Assembly: GCA_963755915.1 (NCBI GenBank)
Contig: CAVWLP010000002.1
Span: forward strand, 1,376,001 to 1,440,000
Direction of reading: 5' to 3'
Length of the DNA stretch: 64,000 nt
Origin: an uncultured Phycisphaerales bacterium
GTDB lineage: Bacteria > Planctomycetota > Phycisphaerae > Tepidisphaerales > Tepidisphaeraceae
Shown here: one piece after another, positions 8,680 through 52,429 of the stretch
Layout of the letters: every line of letters starts with the position of its first letter
How positions within the stretch are numbered: the first letter of the stretch is position 1
Position numbers and translations under genes: made by a program
Notes under the pieces: generated by a model
Told to the model about the DNA's origin: nothing
The model's database searches: none
The model's input: the letters and a program-made list of their open reading frames with translations, nothing else

Positions 8680-9819
8680 ATGCCTCCGCTCCAAATCCTC
8701 AACGACGATCAGGCCCGCCTCAAATCCCTCAAGGACATGCTCCATCAACACGTCGCCCCCGCCGCCGACGAGCTGATCCAGCACGAAGCCGACGGCGCCG
8801 TCCGCTGCTTTGCCTGCGGCCATCGCTGCCTCGTCAAGCCCGGCCGCGACGGCGTCTGCCGCGTGCGCTTCAACGAGGGCGGCACTCTGAAAGTCCCCTT
8901 CGGCTACGTAGGCGTCCTCGCCTGCGACCCCATCGAGAAAAAACCCTTCTTCCATTGCCTCCCCGGCAGCGACGCCCTCACCTTCGGCATGCTCGGCTGC
9001 GATTTCCACTGCGGCTATTGCCAGAACTGGGTCACCAGCCAGATGCTCCGCGACCCCAAGGCCGCTGCCCCGCCCAAATTGACGAACCCCAAGCAGCTCG
9101 TAGACCTGGCCATCCAGCACGGAGCCCCGGTCATCGCCTCCAGCTACAACGAGCCGCTCATCACCAGCGAATGGGCCGTCGCCGTTTTCCGCGAAGCGCG
9201 CACCCGCGGCCTCAAGTGTGCCTATATCTCCAACGGCAACGGCACGCCGCAGGTCCTCGATTTCCTCCGTCCTCACGTCGACGCCTACAAAGTCGATCTC
9301 AAAACCTTCAATCCAAAACACTACCGCGAGCTGGGCGGCGTAATGGAAAACGTCACCACCACCATCAAAATGCTCAAGCAACGCAACTTCTGGGTCGAAA
9401 TCGTCACCCTCGTAGTCCCCGGCTTCAGCGACGACCCCGATGAGCTCAAACAAATGGCCGATTTTCTGGCCTCGGTTGATCCCCTCATGCCCTGGCACGT
9501 AACCGCCTTCCATCCCGACTACAAAATGCGCGAGGGCTTCCGCAACACCACCGCCGACGACCTGATGCGAATCGTCGAGTACGGCCAGAAAGCCGGCCTG
9601 AAATATATCTACCCAGGCAACCTCCCCGGCCAGGTCGGCGATTGGGAAAACACCCGCTGCCACTACTGCCGCGCCATGCTAATCCGGCGATACGGTTTTC
9701 TGGTCCAGGAAATCCGCGTGACCTCAGAGGGCAAATGCCCCGACTGCGGCACCGCCATCCCCGGCATCTGGGGCAAGCGCAGCGGCCACGGGGATGGAAA
9801 GGTGCGCCCCTTGGCCTAA
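8680..9819 (+). CDS. amrS: AmmeMemoRadiSam system radical SAM enzyme
   Basis: CFACGHRC, DPIEKKPFFH, GCDFHCGYCQNW, WHVTAFHPDY, NTRCHYC. Confidence 0.9.
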   Translation: MPPLQILNDDQARLKSLKDMLHQHVAPAADELIQHEADGAVRCFACGHRCLVKPGRDGVCRVRFNEGGTLKVPFGYVGVLACDPIEKKPFFHCLPGSDALTFGMLGCDFHCGYCQNWVTSQMLRDPKAAAPPKLTNPKQLVDLAIQHGAPVIASSYNEPLITSEWAVAVFREARTRGLKCAYISNGNGTPQVLDFLRPHVDAYKVDLKTFNPKHYRELGGVMENVTTTIKMLKQRNFWVEIVTLVVPGFSDDPDELKQMADFLASVDPLMPWHVTAFHPDYKMREGFRNTTADDLMRIVEYGQKAGLKYIYPGNLPGQVGDWENTRCHYCRAMLIRRYGFLVQEIRVTSEGKCPDCGTAIPGIWGKRSGHGDGKVRPLA

Positions 9820-10136
9820 TCGGGTGTAATGCTTGCTTATGGCTCACCGGTATTTCCCCTCCCCTGGTACTCCTGACCGCCCGCCACTTTTTTCTGTCGA
9901 GTCAGATTTCCCCCCGCCGGAATGATGCGCTCGGCTTCTTTCCTTTGTCGCAGGACGTGAACCAGCAAAACCGCCAATACCGTCCGGCTGGCCCCACGAT
10001 CTTCACCTGCCCGATGGTCCAAGCACAAATAGGCCTGAAAATCCGCAGCAATGCGTCTGTTCGTTGCCTTTGGCCTTGGACGGTTAGATGGCATGTTGGT
10101 TGTCGGGCTAGCCACCGTCGACTAAACCCGACAACC

Positions 10137-11276
10137 ATGAAACACAATTCTTCTAAAGGTAGCCGCAAGGCCTCCCAAGTTCGAGGGGAGAGAGTCTCGA
10201 AGCCCAATCAGTCGCACGAGGTGATCAAACTCGGCGTGGATACCCACAGCCAGCAATATACCTTCGCACGGATGGTCGATCATCAGGGGATTCAACCGGC
10301 CCAAAAACTCTCGCCGGCCGTCTTCATCGAGTTTCTCAAAAAGCAGCTGACGCTGGCCAAACGCGTGGTGATGGTCTACGAAGCCGGTCCCTACGGCTTC
10401 GCGTTGCACCGCGAAGCCACCGCCCTGGGCGTAGAGTGCCTGGTCTGTGCCCCCGAACGTCTGTCCCGCGGCCGCAAGAGAGTCAACGACAAGATCGACG
10501 CCACCGAACTGCTCTCGCGTCTGGACCGGCATCTCGCCGGCAACACGACGGCGCTGCGTCTGGTGCGTGTCCCCACGGTGGCCCAGGAGATCCACCGCCG
10601 CCTGGGGCGCGAGCGCAACACCTACCGAAAGGAACGGCAGCGCTGGATCGCCCGTGGACGAAGCCTGCTGCACAGCCTCGGCATCCATCGCCCGGGAAAA
10701 TGGTGGGAGCCGCTGGCGTGTGAGCCGCTGCTGAAAAAGCTGGAAGAACTCTACGGCTCAGAACTGATCGAACCGATCCGCAAGGAGCTTGCCCGCGACC
10801 TGGAGATGGTAGAGATGATGGACCAGAAGCGAGATGAACTGACCCGCCAGCTCTGCGCGGAGGCCAAGTCCCGCGAATCGGCCCGGATCAAGGGAATCGG
10901 ACACCTCAGCTATGAGCTGCTGGATCGTGAGATCGTCGACTGGAATCGCTTCCAGAACCGCCGGCAGATCGCCAGCTACACCGGGCTTTGCCCTGGAGAA
11001 TCCTCCTCAGGCCAGAGCCGGATGAATCTGTCGATCGACAAACATGGCAACCGCCGACTGCGCACGGTGCTGGTGGAACTGGCGTGGCTGCTGCCCAAGT
11101 TCCAGCCGGAGTATTTTCGTCTGAAGCGCTGGAAGCAGGTCTTCGAGAACCCCGGAGCCAGAGCCATGCGCAAGAAAGCCGCGGTGGCCTTGGCGCGGCA
11201 ACTGGCGGTGGACCTGTGGCGGATCAAAACCGGCCGGGTCAAAGCGCAGGATCTGGGCTTGAAACTGGCAGCGTAA
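10137..11276 (+). CDS. IS110-family DEDD recombinase/transposase
   Basis: LGVD, VYEAGPYGF, NDKIDA (D-E-D-D); YTGLCPGESSSG serine loop; GNRRLR; VALARQL. Confidence 0.95.
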   Translation: MKHNSSKGSRKASQVRGERVSKPNQSHEVIKLGVDTHSQQYTFARMVDHQGIQPAQKLSPAVFIEFLKKQLTLAKRVVMVYEAGPYGFALHREATALGVECLVCAPERLSRGRKRVNDKIDATELLSRLDRHLAGNTTALRLVRVPTVAQEIHRRLGRERNTYRKERQRWIARGRSLLHSLGIHRPGKWWEPLACEPLLKKLEELYGSELIEPIRKELARDLEMVEMMDQKRDELTRQLCAEAKSRESARIKGIGHLSYELLDREIVDWNRFQNRRQIASYTGLCPGESSSGQSRMNLSIDKHGNRRLRTVLVELAWLLPKFQPEYFRLKRWKQVFENPGARAMRKKAAVALARQLAVDLWRIKTGRVKAQDLGLKLAA

Positions 11277-11339
11277 AAAGCCGGCCAAGGTTGTCCCCGA
11301 ACTTCTGGAGCCTGGATGGACGACGGATAAAGAGCTTGG

Positions 11340-11600
11340 AATAAAAGTGAAAGAGACGAGCCACGGTGTAACGCGCCCGTTTTCCCCTATGAGCGCCCTT
11401 GAGCGTTCGGCGGTTAGATTGGGTCAGCGTGAACCGCCTGCAACGGACGTATTAGACCATGGTGTACTGGCAAACCGCCAGGTACGGATAGCAGGAAGAG
11501 CGTTGCCGCAATGATGGCAACAGCCCATGCAGAGCGGACACTGACAGGCCGAGCAACAGCTTAAAAAGACAAAAGAATAAAGGCGGCGAATGCGGCCCAC
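11340..11600 (+). ncRNA. predicted bridge/seek RNA of the IS110 element (boundaries approximate)
   Basis: Two internal-loop hairpins whose loop strands match the target flanks (11380-11388, 11411-11418) and the IS ends (11457-11461, 11488-11493). Confidence 0.75.
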
Positions 11601-11992
11601 ACTTGACAACCAACATAGCAGGGGAAAAGGAGAGGGAGTGGGGGTGCGGGGGCGGAGCCGCGGACGGCTCCGGGCCGTACTCGGCGATTACGCCCCGGAG
11701 GCCTCCGCGCCTCCGAAGAACCTCTTGGGGCCCTATGTGGCTCTCCCTCGCCCCCGCATTGCATTTGCGTTTTGTATTCAAAAAAAGCAGCCATATGGCT
11801 CACGAAAACAAAAAGTGTCGGGCGGTCAGCCTGGTACTCCGGGGGAACCCTCCCTGTCCTCTTCCGCTAGTTTCGGCACGATGGGTGGGGGGTCGGACCA
11901 CAAATGAGCGCCACAACCGCTCAACCAGTTCGCCAACATTTTTCGTGCAGCGCCCCGTTCGTGTGTTAAATTTATTGATCACGGAGAAACCA

Positions 11993-12238
11993 ATGACGAT
12001 TTCCCTCAGCGCAGAAACTCAAAAACTTCTCGCAGAAAAGCTCCAAAGCGGCGAGTTCAGTTCCGCTGACGAGGTCGTCCACGCCGCATTAGAAGCGCTG
12101 AACACTCTTCAATCACATTCCCTGGATCCGGCCACACTGGACGCAATTCATCGGGCCGAAGCTCAAATCGAGCACACCCGCGTCCACAATTGGAAGAACG
12201 TGCGCGAACAGGTACACGACCGATTCCTCGGCAAGTGA
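11993..12238 (+). CDS. ParD-like ribbon-helix-helix antitoxin (no toxin gene downstream)
   Basis: MTISLSAETQKLLAEKLQSGEFSSADEVVHAAL matches the ParD1/3/4-type pattern. Confidence 0.7.
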   Translation: MTISLSAETQKLLAEKLQSGEFSSADEVVHAALEALNTLQSHSLDPATLDAIHRAEAQIEHTRVHNWKNVREQVHDRFLGK

Positions 12239-12978: not shown

Positions 12979-13281
12979 TCAGTCGATCAAAGCTACCAAT
13001 TCCTCAAGCTCCCAAACATGATCGGCCAGCCCGGCTTGCATGGCTGGAGTCACGCGAAGCGTCTGGTGAATCCGGCAATAGTTGTAGTGCATGAAGTGCA
13101 AGGCAACTTGCGCCGCGTGGTTCTCAACCTTTTTGCTGAACGCGTTTGTGAGTCGCGTGAATCGACGCATCGACATCCGCATCGTGAGATTCTGCCGTTC
13201 AACGTAGGACGTTGAAATGTGGCTGGCATCGGGCGTTCCGCAGACTTCCTCTTGCCGAATGTCAACCACTTCCGGCGGCGA
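12979..13281 (-). pseudogene. IS1-family transposase C-terminal remnant
   Basis: HISTSYVERQNLTMRMSMRRFTRLTNAFSKKVENH...HYNYCRIHQTLRVTPAMQAGLADHVW; 5' part missing. Confidence 0.85.
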
Positions 13282-13300
13282 GTAGTGGGTCAGTTTGAAA
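13282..13300 (-). repeat. IS1-like terminal repeat, copy 2
   Basis: GTAGTGGGTCAGTTTGAAA directly abutting the stop of the 13301 ORF. Confidence 0.75.
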
Positions 13301-13855
13301 TTAAATAGTACTTTCGACCAGCTTTCCGCATTCCGGGCAACGATCAGGCGTGGCGCGGAGGTCATAGCCGCAGACCTCGCAGAGGCCTCTTGCACTTCGG
13401 CGGCGGTTGCGGCGCCGATTCATTTCCTGAATCAGAATTAGCATCGGGCAAAAGGCCATTAACGCCCAATGGGGGATTCGTGCCTCTAAACATGGGATAT
13501 ACGCTCCTGATCCAAGCTCGTTGATTCCGAACTCAAATCCGCACTTGCTGAAATAGGCGCCGTAAAATACGTCGCCTAACCACTCACCGTGGGGAAGGGG
13601 AAACGATTTGAACTCGATTTCCAAAGGAAGGCTGTGGATAAAGTTGGCGTGAGTCACGTAAATATATCGCGCCCATATTTGGCCATCGCGCGACCCGATC
13701 TCGAATGCGCCCCTATATTGGCCAATTGCACTCAATTGGACAGCTATCCATTCATCGTGGTGAATGCTCCGTATCTACAGTAGCAGCGTACCCACGAACA
13801 TCAGCACCATCGAAGCGGCGATTACTCTCGACAGCCATCGGCGGAAGCGTTTCAT
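13301..13855 (-). pseudogene. membrane protein with C-terminal zinc ribbon; in-frame TAG at 13775-13777
   Basis: MKRFRRWLSRVIAASMVLMFVGTLLL*IRS ... GLCEVCGYDLRATPDRCPECG. Confidence 0.7.
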
Positions 13856-18600: not shown

Positions 18601-18977
18601 CCCCACCGCGCCGGCGAATCAGAAGTGCCAGCGGTGCGATACAGAGAATTCCCATCGACGCCGGTTCGGGGACCACAAGCGAGAGCAGATAAGCGCTGCT
18701 GCCGATGGACGAGTTATTCATTAATTCCTGGCCATTCAATAATCCGAGGCCGACAACGAATTGTGGATATCCATTCACATCGTCGCCCGAGGTGCTAATA
18801 ACGCTTTGGATCGCATCCCAGCCGTTTGCGGTAAGTCCGCCGTTGACAAGCGTGCCAAGGTGTCATGGGGCGCGCAAAACCGGCCAATTGAGGGCGCGCC
18901 AAAACCGGCCATTTTGAGGCACAGGAGATTGGGTTATCGACCTTGGCTTTCGGCGGTTGCCGCAAGCCAATGGTGGG

Positions 18978-20658
18978 ATGGCCAATCAACTCAAGATGGC
19001 GGAAGTACAAGCAATTTTGGCACTTGCGCAGCGGCTGGTCCAATCGGAACATCGCCCGCCAACTCGGCGTTCACCGGGAGACCGTTGGACGCCACATCCG
19101 GTTGTCGGGCGGCGATCCTGCGGCGCCCGGATCGGATTCAAAACCGGCCAGCGCGCCCTCGGCTCGACGGTGCTCGCCGCAGGCGGCTCGACGGTGCTCG
19201 CCGCAGGCGGCTCGACGGTGCTCGCCGCAGGCGGCTCGGAGAGCGCGCCCACCGGGTTATCCGGCGCGCCCATCGGGTCGGTCAGTACGGCATCGCCCTG
19301 GCGTGAGGTCATTGTTCAGAAGTTGGAAGCCGGGCTGACGGCCCAGCGGATTTATCAAGACATCTCCAGCGATCACGGCTATGCCGGCAGCTATTACAGC
19401 GTGCGCCGGTTCATCAAGAAGCTCTCGGCTGCCGCGCCGGCGCCCTTTCGCCGGATGGAATGCGAGCCGGGAGCCGAGGCGCAGGTGGACTTCGGCCGGG
19501 GTGCGCCCTGGTCGGTCCTGACGGCAAACGCAAAGCAACCTGGGTCTTCCGCATTGTGCTGAGCCACAGCCGCAAGGGGTACGCCGAGGCGGTGGAGCGG
19601 CAGACGACCGATGATTTTCTGCGTTGTCTGGAAAATGCCTTTACGCACTTCGGCGGGATGCCGTCAGCGCTGGTGATCGACAATCTTCGCGCGGCGGTGA
19701 CGCGGGCGGACTGGTTCGAGGCGGAGTTGTGTCCCAAGGTCCGGTCGTTCGCCGAACATTATGGAATCGCCATTCTGCCCACCAAGCCGTACACGCCGCG
19801 GCACAAGGGGAAGATCGAGCGGGGCATCGGCTATGTGAAGAGCAATGCTCTCAAAGGCCGGCAATTCGCCTCGCTCTCGGATCAGAACGCGCATCTGCTG
19901 ACGTGGGAGAAGAGCGTGGCCGACACGCGCATCCACGGCACGACGCGGCGGCAGGTGAAGGAAGTCTTCGAGCAGGTAGAGAAGCCGGCACTGTTGGCTC
20001 TGCCGCCGGTGCGATTCGATCTTTTCACCGAGGCGTTGCGCAGTGTTCACCGCGACGGGCACGTGGAGATCAAGGGGGCGTACTATTCGGTCCCGCCGGA
20101 GTTTTTGGGCCAGCGGGTCTGGGCGCGGTGGGACGGCGCACGGTCCGGCTGTTCGATCAGAAGATGCGTGCGATCGCTCTGCACGCGCAGCGTCCGCCGG
20201 GCAGGTTCTCGACGCAAGACGCCCATATCCTGCCGGAGAAGATCAGCGGCATCGAGCGTGGAACGACCTGGCTTCTCCAGCGGATCGAATGCATCGGGCC
20301 GCACGCCACGCAGTGGGCGCAGTCAATGCTTCAGCATCGCGGCATCGAAGGCGTGCGCGTGTTGATGGGGCTGCTGTCGCTGGCCAATCAGCAGCCGCGA
20401 CCGGCCGTGGAACGAGCCTGCGAGATTGCTCTGGGGCATGGCGCGTATCACCTGCGCTCCCTGCGGCAGCTCATCGAACACCAAAACGGCGCGCCGGTTC
20501 AACAACACTTCGAGTTTGTTCAGGAACATCCAATCATCCGCGGACTGGCCGATTACGGACAGTTCGTACGCGACGCAATCACCCAAGCGGAGGCTTTGCC
20601 TGCCGCACAACCTTTACAGGCCTGCCCTGAGCAGAGCCGAAGGGAGTCCACCCCATGA
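18978..20658 (+). CDS. istA: IS21 transposase IstA (several apparent frameshifts)
   Basis: HTH NRNIARQLGVHRETV; EPGAEAQVDFG; VIDNLR; KGKIERGIGYVK; RIHGTT. Confidence 0.88.
19161..19238 (+). repeat. 24-bp in-frame tandem repeat x3 (GSTVLAAG) in the IstA linker
   Basis: ggctcgacggtgctcgccgcaggc repeated three times. Confidence 0.9.
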
Positions 20659-21545
20659 GACCTTCGTTGATGCAGACGCTCAAGCAACTTCGGCTTTCAG
20701 GTCTGGCGAGCAGCCTTGAAGTTCGCCTGAGCGAGGCGGCCGGCAATCGGCTCGACCACAGTGAGTTTTTGGAACTGATCCTTCAGGATGAACTGAACGT
20801 CCGATCCAGCCGGCAGATCGGCCGGCGCGTCAAGGCGGCGATGTTCCGCGACACCAAAAACCTCGACGAGTTCGACTTCTCCTTCAACACCTCCATCAAA
20901 CGCAAACAGATTCACGATCTGGCCGCCGGCCAGTTCATTCGTGACAAACGTGACGTGCTCTTGCTGGGTCCGCCCGGCGTGGGCAAATCGTTTTTGGCCC
21001 AGGCCATCGGACACCAGGCGATCAAGAGCGGCTTGGTGGTCCTGTACCGATCCATCTTCGACCTGGCCCGCGACTTTTTAGGCGACGAGGATCTGGGAGC
21101 CCAGGACAAGACGCTGGCCCGGTATCTCAAGCCTGATCTGCTTATCATCGACGACATGGGAATGAAGCAGCTTCCGCGGCGCAGCGGCGAATGCCTGCTG
21201 GAGATCGTCATGCGCCGGCACGAGAACCGCTCGACGATGATGACCAGCAACCGTCCACTGGAGGACTGGGCCAAGCTGATCGGCGACGTGCCGGCGGCCA
21301 CGGCCATTCTGGATCGGTTCCTGCAGCACGCCACGATCATCAACATCACCGGCAAGAGCTACCGCCTTCGGCATGGGGGCCATTCGACTTCGCTCACGGC
21401 AGGCCAATCCGGGACACCGGAAAAGACAAATCCAAAAGGACGGCGGAGTACCGCCGGCGATGAAGGGTGCTCCCCCCCGGAAGACACCGTGACAGAGCCG
21501 CCGTTGTCTTCTGATGTGGGGGTATCCGCCGGCCAGACGGCGTGA
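20655..21545 (+). CDS. istB: IS21 helper ATPase IstB
   Basis: GPPGVGKS, LLIIDDMG, TSNRP, AILDR, GKSYR. Confidence 0.95.
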   Translation: MRPSLMQTLKQLRLSGLASSLEVRLSEAAGNRLDHSEFLELILQDELNVRSSRQIGRRVKAAMFRDTKNLDEFDFSFNTSIKRKQIHDLAAGQFIRDKRDVLLLGPPGVGKSFLAQAIGHQAIKSGLVVLYRSIFDLARDFLGDEDLGAQDKTLARYLKPDLLIIDDMGMKQLPRRSGECLLEIVMRRHENRSTMMTSNRPLEDWAKLIGDVPAATAILDRFLQHATIINITGKSYRLRHGGHSTSLTAGQSGTPEKTNPKGRRSTAGDEGCSPPEDTVTEPPLSSDVGVSAGQTA

Positions 21546-23711
21546 ACGGGGACCAATAACTCAAGGAACAGTTGCGTCGGATAGAACGGATGCGGTATAG
21601 AATACGTCAGCACATTGGCCGGTTTTGAAGCGCCCCGCCCTGGCTGGTTTTGGCGCGCCCCGTGACACCAAGGTCATGGAAACCGTTGGACTCGCTCCAG
21701 TAGAAGGCGTCTATCCCTTCAAGGGTGGAACCATTGTATAGGTCGTAATAGCCAAGGACTGCGCCCGAGTCGGTCAGAACCTCAGGGTATGTGTCGCTGT
21801 CGCCATTGGCGCTATCGACGCTGAACTGAAGCAGGTCCGTGGAATCCGTGGCGCTGTCGAAAAACCAAGCGTCCTGGCCCAGAGAATTGCCAGTCGAGTT
21901 GTAACGATCGGAGTTTCCAATGACATCACCTGCAGCGTTCATCTGAGATATATAACTGGTTTCGTAGGTTCCGCCGGAGGTGATATAGCTGTCGCCGGCC
22001 CCGTTCACGACGATTTGCTCAGTGGTGGAACCGTTGTAATACCACGCGTCCTGTCCGAGAGGAGCCCCGCTCGAACTAAATCGCTGTGAATAACCAAGCA
22101 CATCACCCGCGTTATTAATCAATGCTGGGGAACTGTTTTGATAAGTTCCCCCCGAGGCGGGATAGCTGTAGTTCGTCCCCGTCAGGCCGATTTGCTGGGT
22201 GGTGGACCCGTTGTAATACCAGGTGTCATAGCCGAGAGAGGCTCCGCTCGAACTAAATCGCTGTGAATAACCAACCACATTCCCCGCGGAATTGATATCG
22301 TATGGGAAACTGTATTGATATGTTCCTCCCGAAGTGGCATAGCTGTAATTTGCCCCGGTCAATCCGATTTGCTGAGTTGAGGAACCGTTAAAATACCAGG
22401 CGTCGCTCCCGAGTGAGCCCCCACTGGAGTTATAGCGAAGCGATTGTCCAAGGACTTCTCCTGTCGCGTTGATCGCAAAGTCGTTACTGGATTCGTAGGT
22501 TCCTCCAGTTGTGGCGTAACTGTAGTTCGTGCCAGTCAAGCCGATTTGCTGCGTGGAGGAGCCATTGGAATACCATGAGTCATATCCAAGAAAATTTCCG
22601 GCGGAGCTATAGCGTTTGGAGTATCCGTCGATATCTCCCGCGTCGTCCATGGTGCTGTCGGCCGCCCATTCATATGTTCCACCAGTGGTGGAATAGCTGT
22701 AGTTAGGCCCGGTCAGTCCGATTTGCTGAGTCGTGGAACCGTTAAAATACCACGAGTCTATACCGAGATTATTTCCGCTGGTGCCATAGCGATACGAACT
22801 TCCGCTGACATCCCCGGCGGTACTGACCTGCCATGGCATGCTGTCTTCGTAGCTGCCGCCCGAAGCCGCGTAGCTATAATTTGTCCCAATCAGACCGATC
22901 TGCTGGGTGGAGGTGCCGTTGAAATACCACGAGTCATCGCCGAGCGCGGTTCCGGTGGTGCTATAGCGATTGGAAGTTCCGATGACATCATTCGTGCTGT
23001 TAATCTTGTCGGGAGTGCTGAATTCGTAGGTTCCGCCTGAGGCTGCGTAGCCATAGTTCGTCCCTATCAATCCGATTTGCTGCGTCGAGGAGCCATTAAA
23101 AAACCAGGCGTCCTGTCCGAGAGAACTGCCACTGGAGCTGTAACGCGCGGAATCGCCGATTAAATCCCCCACCGGATTGAAGTTGGAAACTACCTCAATG
23201 GATTGATTGCCATCGTAGGAATAAATTGTTCCGGTAAGCCCGAGTTCCTGAATCGAATAAACTGCGGAAGCAAGGGCCAGCGGGGCGGTAGACGCGAGCG
23301 CACTGAGGAAGACCACCAGAACGCGCACGACTGCCTGCAAAGAAAATGGCTTTCGCGTGCTCTTCGGAGATGTTTTTAGACTTAATGCCTGGTGCATTTT
23401 CCTCCCATTTCAACAGCTTTGAATTGCGGGATTTCGCCCGATTTCGTGCCAATCCTCCAGGATCTTGGACCAGTATATATTGAACGACCAATGTCCACCA
23501 AGAAAATCCCCTCAAACAAGCATAAGCCGCTGCTAGATTTGCAGATACGCTACGCACCCCGGACATTCATGGACCTGTTTTGTTCAGCGGGGATCGGCTA
23601 ATCGCTTGAGAATTAAGTATTTCGAAAATACGCGAGATAGGCGGTTCGCCGCTCAATCCACGCAAAGGTAGAATCACAGTTGAGATCGGATTTCTCTAGC
23701 GGAGGATAGCC

Positions 23712-52388: not shown

Positions 52389-52429
52389 CCCTCACCCCTG
52401 CCCTCTCCCAGAGTACTGGGAGAGGGAGG
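52389..52429. repeat. REP-like element
   Basis: CCCTCACCCCTGCCCTCTCCCAGAGTACTGGGAGAGGG hairpin overlapping the GT stop. Confidence 0.75.

Follow-up and report, generated by a model that had tools for sequence, protein, structure and literature searches.

We analyzed a 64,000-nucleotide stretch of DNA from a soil bacterium (G000:C2:1376001-1440000; 'the window' below means this whole stretch), whose assembly (G000) comprises 6.63 Mb at 59% G+C on three contigs. One intergenic site of the window holds three repeats nested within one another: a repetitive extragenic palindromic (REP) hairpin, interrupted by a miniature inverted-repeat transposable element (MITE), which is itself interrupted by an insertion sequence (IS) of the IS110 family. 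The layers were laid down in the order REP, MITE, IS. The features of the site, numbered from the start of the window and with the evidence for each in parentheses, are as follows.

9853-9872, plus strand: left half of the REP, TTTCCCCTCCCCTGGTACTC (sequence; REP family matches; uninterrupted REP at the orthologous site of a sister genome, G001).
9863-9872, plus strand: first copy of the target-site duplication, CCTGGTACTC (final 10 bp of the REP left half).
9873-9892, plus strand: left terminal inverted repeat of the MITE, CTGACCGCCCGCCACTTTTT (sequence; same end in other MITE copies; near-identical ends on an IS4-like element of another genome, G144).
9873-10088, plus strand: left part of the MITE, 216 bp, of the subtype shared by copies W (the window copy) and D, whose final bases, ..TTGGACGGTTAG(A), are the left half of the IS target (copy comparison).
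10089-11620, plus strand: IS1111-type IS of the IS110 family, 1532 bp, with an AG core at both junctions (identical copies; empty sites; same ends in relatives with other flanks).
10093-10104, plus strand: left subterminal inverted repeat of the IS, ATGTTGGTTGTC (partner at 11605-11616).
10137-11276, plus strand: transposase gene, 379 amino acids (NF033542; Pfam Transposase_20).
11364-11497, plus strand: predicted seekRNA (bridge-type RNA) folding into two internal-loop modules (block conserved among relatives apart from two hypervariable patches; consensus fold).
11380-11389, plus strand: top-strand guide (T), TTTTCCCCTA, reverse complement of the target TAGGGGAAAA (match and co-variation).
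11411-11419, plus strand: bottom-strand guide (B), CGGTTAG (11411-11417) plus AT (same sequence as the left target and core on the top strand, continuing into the first IS bases).
11605-11616, plus strand: right subterminal inverted repeat of the IS, GACAACCAACAT (partner at 10093-10104).
11621-11829, plus strand: right part of the MITE, an 'arm' repeat running from the IS target (GGGGAAAAGGAGAGGG..) to the right inverted end (empty sites; genus-wide arm copies).
11810-11829, minus strand: right terminal inverted repeat of the MITE, reading CTGACCGCCCGACACTTTTT on that strand (sequence).
11830-11893, plus strand: second copy of the duplication, CCTGGTACTC (11830-11839), then the REP right half and a conserved tail (sequence; paralogues; G001 orthologue).

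The site was compared with the rest of its own genome, with sister genomes (G001; 12 genomes of the genus) and with 141 genomes of the order. Excision in silico of the insert together with one copy of the 10-bp repeat gave TTTCCCCTCCCCTGGTACTCCGGGGGAA, a short imperfect palindrome (stem CCCCTCCCC/GGGGAGGG, loop TGGTACTCC) present in many copies, as is characteristic of a REP. The family numbers 126 genomic matches to its 18-mer core at up to 2 mismatches (200 matches to a 17-mer core) and has the consensus ..CCCC[T/G]CCCC[T/C]GGTACTCCGGGGGAGGGnnGGGG[T/A]GGGG. The initial annotation of the window, made from the sequence alone, had anticipated this restored REP and likened it to one at position 52389, which proved to be a diverged member of the same family (CCCTCTCCCAGAGTACTGGGAGAGGG). 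At the orthologous intergenic site of G001, bounded upstream by a radical-SAM gene 90% identical to that of the window and followed by the same downstream gene, we observed a single uninterrupted REP, CCCCCTCGCCCGGTACTCCGGGAGACCCTCC, indicating that the REP was the first layer and that the 10-bp duplication is real. The split variant has the tail CTGTCCTCTTCCGCTAGTTTCGGCACGATGGGTGG, and three uninterrupted paralogues with the same right-hand tail of 60-75 bp lie at C2:4684350, 766597 and 4219518. The first of these (L006, G000:C2:4684350-4684440) is flanked by sequence whose translation (..NAIKFTEKGQIIVRI.. and ..IHFEISDTGIGIP..) resembles the ATP-binding part of a histidine kinase, and this REP copy may therefore sit inside a coding region.

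The middle layer is bounded by 20-bp terminal inverted repeats that match at 19 of 20 positions and are flanked on both sides by the 10-bp duplication CCTGGTACTC, as the initial annotation had it. Without the IS it measures 425 bp, and its inverted ends, duplication, small size and many copies are those of a MITE. BLAST searches with five cleaned copies yielded 47 merged loci (loci of a short palindrome among them), and the full-length element as query gave 26 matches in G000. The copies are 72-86% alike, many of them being imperfect palindromes about 450 bp long. Empty relatives do exist, including one of the left part at C2:4000612-4000828; a copy of the left part in G001 is 86% identical. 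At least five copies occupy the loops of canonical REPs (W, A, E, F and the copy at C2:678768), and several more are flanked by degenerate REP halves. With the termini taken as CTGACC..GGTCAG, the duplication measures 10 bp for W and for F, 10 bp with one mismatch for C2:678768, and 6 bp for A and for E; none is clear for D. The 6-bp repeat of copies A (G000:C3:1156652-1158474) and E (G000:C2:3857075-3859059) is GTACTC, with a left junction of the W type and a right junction of the F type, a mixture that could have arisen by recombination between copies or from a different cut spacing.

The IS is present in six genomic copies that are 100% identical across all 1532 bp and share one orientation, with a left flank of ..GGACGGTTAG(A), also ..TTGGACGGTTAG(A), and a right flank of GGGGAA... 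Empty sites read GGACGGTTAGGGGAA and define the boundaries exactly, save for the 2-bp AG, which can be assigned to either side; the limits of 10089 and 11620 implied when the element was first placed inside the MITE were therefore accurate to within that core. No target duplication accompanies insertion, as the empty sequence GGTTAGGGGAA becomes GGTTAG-A..IS..GC-AGGGGAA, with AG alone repeated on both sides. The transposase matched the NCBIfam model NF033542 ('IS110 family RNA-guided transposase') at 163.8 bits, above its cut-off of 140, with residues 33-363 aligned to positions 3-337 of the 343-position profile, and Pfam Transposase_20 at 58.6 bits against a cut-off of 21.3 (E 8e-16). The Pfam model of the N-terminal DEDD domain gave no match in the protein even at E 10. 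Both the start codon and its surroundings are conserved among relatives.

Siddiquee et al. 2024 (PMC11187229) give the traits of IS1111 elements as subterminal repeats, a longer non-coding region downstream, the motif GL-P----S(T)G and an enzyme of 330-350 amino acids. In the window element, the 12-bp inverted repeats each lie 4 bp from an IS end and are conserved in relatives, the non-coding DNA amounts to 344 nucleotides downstream of the gene against 48 upstream, and the motif appears in the translation as GLCPGESSSG. Identity among the IS copies, against divergence among the MITE copies, makes the IS the last layer and so bears out, together with the G001 site, the nesting order proposed in the initial annotation. 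The IS was not found in the 12 other genomes of the genus, and this, together with its six identical copies, points to a recent arrival. In an independent run of soil DNA (X5, separate study), a variant with 21 differences over 1563 bases occupies the same arm target.

The downstream non-coding region contains two short stretches that correspond to the insertion site. Guide T matches 10 nucleotides and guide B matches 7, T lies 5' of B, and the two matches meet and overlap at the insertion point, so that jointly they match the site CGGTT-AG-GGGAAAA. The same arrangement, in which the top-strand match precedes the bottom-strand match and the two overlap in the target, is given for IS1111-type seekRNAs in PMC11187229. 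We infer that the IS makes an RNA from positions 11364-11497.

To this region we could compare a collection of 33 relatives (protein identity 45-81%; 2 on genome contigs and 31 on metagenome contigs), which are located in Phycisphaerae-type metagenome bins. Four were excluded from the RNA alignment as distant or truncated (L069-L072) and four more because their contigs end before the RNA region (L048, L051, L053 and L054), leaving 25 relatives and the window element. Across these 26 sequences the RNA is highly conserved and has exactly two hypervariable patches; guides were read from the alignment columns. At least 8 contiguous bases of guide T match the element's own target in 18 of the 20 elements with a known right flank. 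In a co-variation test with 20000 permutations per guide, the 13 distinct T guides (one row each) matched their own targets over a mean of 8.5 nucleotides and the targets of others over 4.6, and the 23 B guides matched over 5.5 and 2.65 nucleotides, respectively; none of the 20000 permutations equaled either result. Guide and target thus match in the window and co-vary across its relatives. A 45% identical homolog is carried by genome G014, and no conclusion rests on it.

Folding of the 344-nucleotide non-coding region as a single sequence performed no better than shuffled controls (z -1.12), and the alignment fold was therefore used. Its input was 21 of the 26 sequences, after removal of L043 and L045 (truncated by contig ends) and of L060, L067 and L068 (near-duplicates). 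The consensus fold has 33 pairs arranged in two internal-loop modules, and compensatory changes occur at 9 of these pairs. Module 1 carries both variable guides; module 2 does not vary, and the GGATAGCAGG within it matches the right end of the IS, itself conserved.

The 14-bp site of the IS forms the inner edge of the arm, a repeat of about 115 bp. All 12 exact genomic matches to GACGGTTAGGGGAA, and both matches with 1 mismatch, fall inside arm copies. The arm is present in all 12 of the genus genomes, mostly without MITE ends, which are limited to G000 and G001. In G007, G008, G009 and G011 (L013, L012, L009 and L015, respectively) it occurs solo or as inverted pairs that lack MITE ends, and its site there is either the same or the variant GGACGGTTGAGGGGAA. 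The arm has a purine-rich run, a hairpin with a 14-bp stem and the tail TGCATTGCATTT, and is conserved throughout the genus in solo or inverted-pair form. The arm copy in the window had no match in Rfam. Relatives of the IS use related targets: L042 (81% identical) is directed to an arm variant, with GGACGGTTGAG to the left of the insertion point and GGGAAAAGG to its right, that is seen in the sister genomes lacking MITE ends. Two further relatives on metagenome contigs, L055 and L061 (66% protein identity), are placed by their guides and flanks in REPs of the same family as the outer layer, L055 between GGTACTCAG and GGGGAGGG (its flanking sequence reading ..GGTACTCAG before and GGGGAGGGTCAGGGTGGGG after the junction) and L061 after ..GGGAGAG (flank ..GGTACTCCGGGAGAG).

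The MITE is non-autonomous. A partner search gave only MITE-sized loci and no autonomous copy in G000 or G001, and no transposase adjoins a solo MITE end in L017. A pattern search of the 141 order genomes revealed an inverted pair of matches to the 19-mer end, 1221 bp apart, in G144, which is from the family of G000 but from another genus. This element has perfect 18-bp ends (CTGAGCGCCCGACACTTT) and a 10-bp duplication (CGAGTACGAG), lies in the loop of a REP (CCCTCTCCCC..GGAGAGGGG), and encodes a DDE protein of 389 amino acids bounded exactly by the inverted ends. The protein scored 79.8 bits against the NCBIfam IS4 family model NF033591 (E 2e-22; cut-off 152) and 22.9 bits against Pfam DDE_Tnp_1 (PF01609; E 8e-5; cut-off 23). 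A Y-x2-R-x3-E-x6-K stretch, YAKRNWCEQSFRDEK, is visible in it, which we take to be the IS4-family signature, and ends that start with CTGA and duplications of 9-12 bp are, as we assume, typical of the same family. Likeness to the MITE is confined to the ends, at 17 of 19 positions. Homologs of the protein occur in 7 of the 141 order genomes at E ≤1e-10, the sole close match being G144 itself; none was found in G000 or in any of the 12 genus genomes.

We believe that the MITE was most likely moved by an IS4-type DDE transposase acting in trans, and that it is probably immobile in the present genome, in which no such partner was found. The initial annotation had supposed a DDE partner that targets REP loops, and both the MITE copies in such loops and the G144 element agree with it; as for the autonomous element expected to share the MITE's ends, a near-identical-ended candidate exists in G144, but none in G000 or G001. 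Two IS3-family elements, IS1397 and ISKpn1, are specific for the loops of REPs and bacterial interspersed mosaic elements (BIMEs) and produce duplications of 3-4 bp. They resemble the putative partner as DDE-type elements that land in REP hairpin loops, and differ from it in family and in duplication length, the element seen here looking IS4-like, with duplications of 10 bp. To our knowledge, choice of REP hairpin loops is known only for IS3- and IS110-family elements.

These observations suggest the following history. A REP hairpin about 35 bp downstream of the radical-SAM gene was the original resident, and the 425-bp MITE was pasted into its loop, most likely by an IS4-type transposase supplied in trans, duplicating 10 bp. 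The 1532-bp IS1111-type element then entered the MITE recently. An RNA of about 130 nucleotides, from the region 3' of the transposase gene, would present both guides in one internal loop, with T pairing to the top strand of TAGGGGAAAA and B to the bottom strand of CGGTTAG. The guides would overlap at AG as the point of strand exchange, and a DEDD recombinase would insert the circular IS at CGGTT-AG-GGGAAAA without duplication, a chemistry proposed by analogy with published work on relatives.

Taken as a whole, an account of three successive insertions by different mechanisms at a single intergenic site is one that we hold with considerable confidence. Several observations weigh against it. 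Two of the 20 elements with a known right flank match that flank poorly (L050 over 4 nucleotides, L056 over 5), and a scan of positions 9700-12000 against Rfam gave no match at E ≤1. RNA evidence of real weight was not obtained: contigs from two metatranscriptome libraries (X14 and X19) lie over parts of the IS, including 11254-11477, but contigs cannot show transcription, strand or ends, and libraries of this kind can contain DNA. The transposase, at 379 amino acids, is longer than the 330-350 given for IS1111 enzymes. On the side of the MITE, the candidate partner has only about 20-26 bp of end sequence in common with it, is single-copy, comes from another genus and scores below both curated family cut-offs, and the duplication length is not uniform (10, 10, 10 with one mismatch, 6, 6 and none clear).

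That unevenness, the failure to find a partner in the genome or genus, and the presence of two Y1 transposase genes in G000 would also suit a different origin of the 425-bp element, namely spread by a REP-associated Y1 transposase, by recombination between REPs or by some other enzyme, with the likeness to G144 coincidental or limited to the ends. The Y1_Tnp (PF01797) matches above cut-off, at C3:1125127-1125471 (L073) and C3:576500-576694 (L074), could be REP-associated transposases (RAYTs). With up to 4 mismatches allowed, no REP was found closer than 1.5 kb to either gene, and Y1 transposases are not known to make duplications or to need inverted ends. An inverted 19-mer pair that exactly bounds a DDE gene, with a 10-bp duplication and in the same kind of REP, is moreover far from chance, and we regard an origin other than by an IS4-type enzyme as improbable. 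The target of the IS can be read in two ways as well. The initial annotation had proposed a guide programmed against a multicopy MITE, which would make the MITE family a dedicated niche of the IS and the older genus-wide repeat not its real target. In favor of this, 4 of the 6 IS copies are in MITEs delimited by inverted ends, and most of the 12 empty perfect sites belong to copies with at least one recognizable or degenerate end. The arms around the other 2 of the 6, however, copies B (C2:148622) and C (C2:276060), show no inverted end within 3 mismatches; sister genomes without MITE ends have the arm with the exact site, and L042 uses an arm variant found in those genomes. Since arm and site thus occur without MITE ends, both there and around copies B and C, we conclude that the guide is aimed at the arm repeat, with MITEs as its carriers, and a guide aimed at the MITE itself is rather unlikely. 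The match of guide to site stands, and its presumed target needs correction. That landing in such a repeat does the host no harm, a 'safe harbor' as first suggested, is a plausible inference.

It had further been suggested that the MITE could mobilize the IS, in which case the composite (1957 bp end to end) would have moved as a unit on the inverted ends of the MITE and so given rise to both W and D. These two copies do share the MITE subtype and the position and orientation of the IS, and the composite retains its two inverted ends intact. Their MITE parts, however, differ at 8 of 216 positions on the left and 14 of 148 aligned positions on the right (22/364), and a 57-bp indel separates them as well; between the two IS copies there are 0 differences in 1532 positions. 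This argues that the MITE copies had diverged long before the IS entered and that the IS inserted independently and recently into old MITEs, as opposed to moving with one (gene conversion among copies could in principle mask divergence of the IS). Copy D moreover has no clear duplication, neither G000 nor any of the 12 genus genomes yielded a homolog of the IS4-like transposase, and the IS is present in four other, different arm copies. Movement as a unit, which we consider very improbable, is not supported by the W and D comparison. The layers might constitute a coupled ecosystem of repeats, within which a single clade of RNA-guided IS switches targets from layer to layer through small changes of the guide, with L055 and L061 directed to the REP and the window IS and L042 to the arm; we think this improbable. 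In this reading an incoming IS4-type transposase could also move the whole composite, as the IS leaves both MITE ends intact, and the IS would gain another, guide-independent way to spread.

The repeat at positions 11653-11717 (strand not assigned) is a palindrome of about 62-65 bp, CGGAGCCGCGGACGGCTCCGGG..CCCGGAGGC.TCCGCGCCTCCG, a further nested layer found only in this MITE copy; about 10 other copies in the genome normally lie between repeats of the TTCGAATTTCG type. An IS21-family element (IstA/IstB, about 2.9 kb) is present in roughly 30 or more copies, which vary in how many tandem repeats they have near the left end. The window includes one of them, at about 18859-21667; another, at G000:C2:2519142-2522517 (L001 6643-10018), is nested in another MITE of the same family. 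The latter, seen between a pair of MITE ends at C2:2519143-2522516, was considered as the autonomous partner of the MITE and rejected, being a multicopy IstA/IstB element itself nested in a MITE. On the minus strand of the window, positions 12979-13395 contain an open frame of 138 amino acids ending ..RLTNAFSKKVENH..YNYCRIHQTL, which presumably resembles the C-terminal part of a DDE transposase.

Relatives of the IS with comparable habits are already described. IS621 reportedly carries its bridge RNA in the left end and targets REPs. IS621, ISPpu9 and ISPpu10 (IS110 group) are like the window element in having an RNA-guided DEDD recombinase, REP-type repeats as targets and a two-loop RNA (target and donor loops); they differ in that the RNA lies upstream of the gene (left end), the guide order is reversed and subterminal repeats are absent. 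IS4321 and IS5075, of the IS1111 family, use the terminal repeats of Tn21-family transposons as insertion sites. They too are IS110-family elements with a fixed target within another mobile element, but that target is a transposon terminal repeat, disabled by the insertion, whereas the site used in the window is internal and leaves the MITE ends intact. A target logo for IS4321 is mentioned in PMC11187229. ISEc11, ISPa11, ISKpn4 and ISPst6 (IS1111 group, 3' seekRNA), as described there, share with the window element the subterminal repeats, the downstream non-coding region and the motif, as well as the order and overlap of the guides, the lack of a target duplication and a repeat as target. 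The window element differs from them in protein length (379 versus 330-350 amino acids), in a target carried by a MITE family and in its soil bacterial host. An AG dinucleotide at the IS termini is also found in ISPpu9 (PMC12288879). A limited literature search, which does not show absence from print, gave no case of an IS110-family element targeting a MITE save for the MITE-like ssr9 module of ISPpu9 itself (PMC12288879).

Landing in repeats (REPs, attC sites and transposon ends) is a known habit of the IS110 family, and the locus described here is a clear example of it and not a new kind of system; the understanding of these systems is unchanged by our findings. The locus offers a clean natural nested repeat in which, for every layer, a mechanism (in the case of the MITE, the most likely one) is identified and the order dated. 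The 13 distinct guide and target pairs form a natural series within one close seekRNA clade, in which the joint drift of guide and target and the mismatches tolerated can be followed, and the element of G144 provides a candidate IS4-like transposase that appears to choose the loops of REP hairpins.

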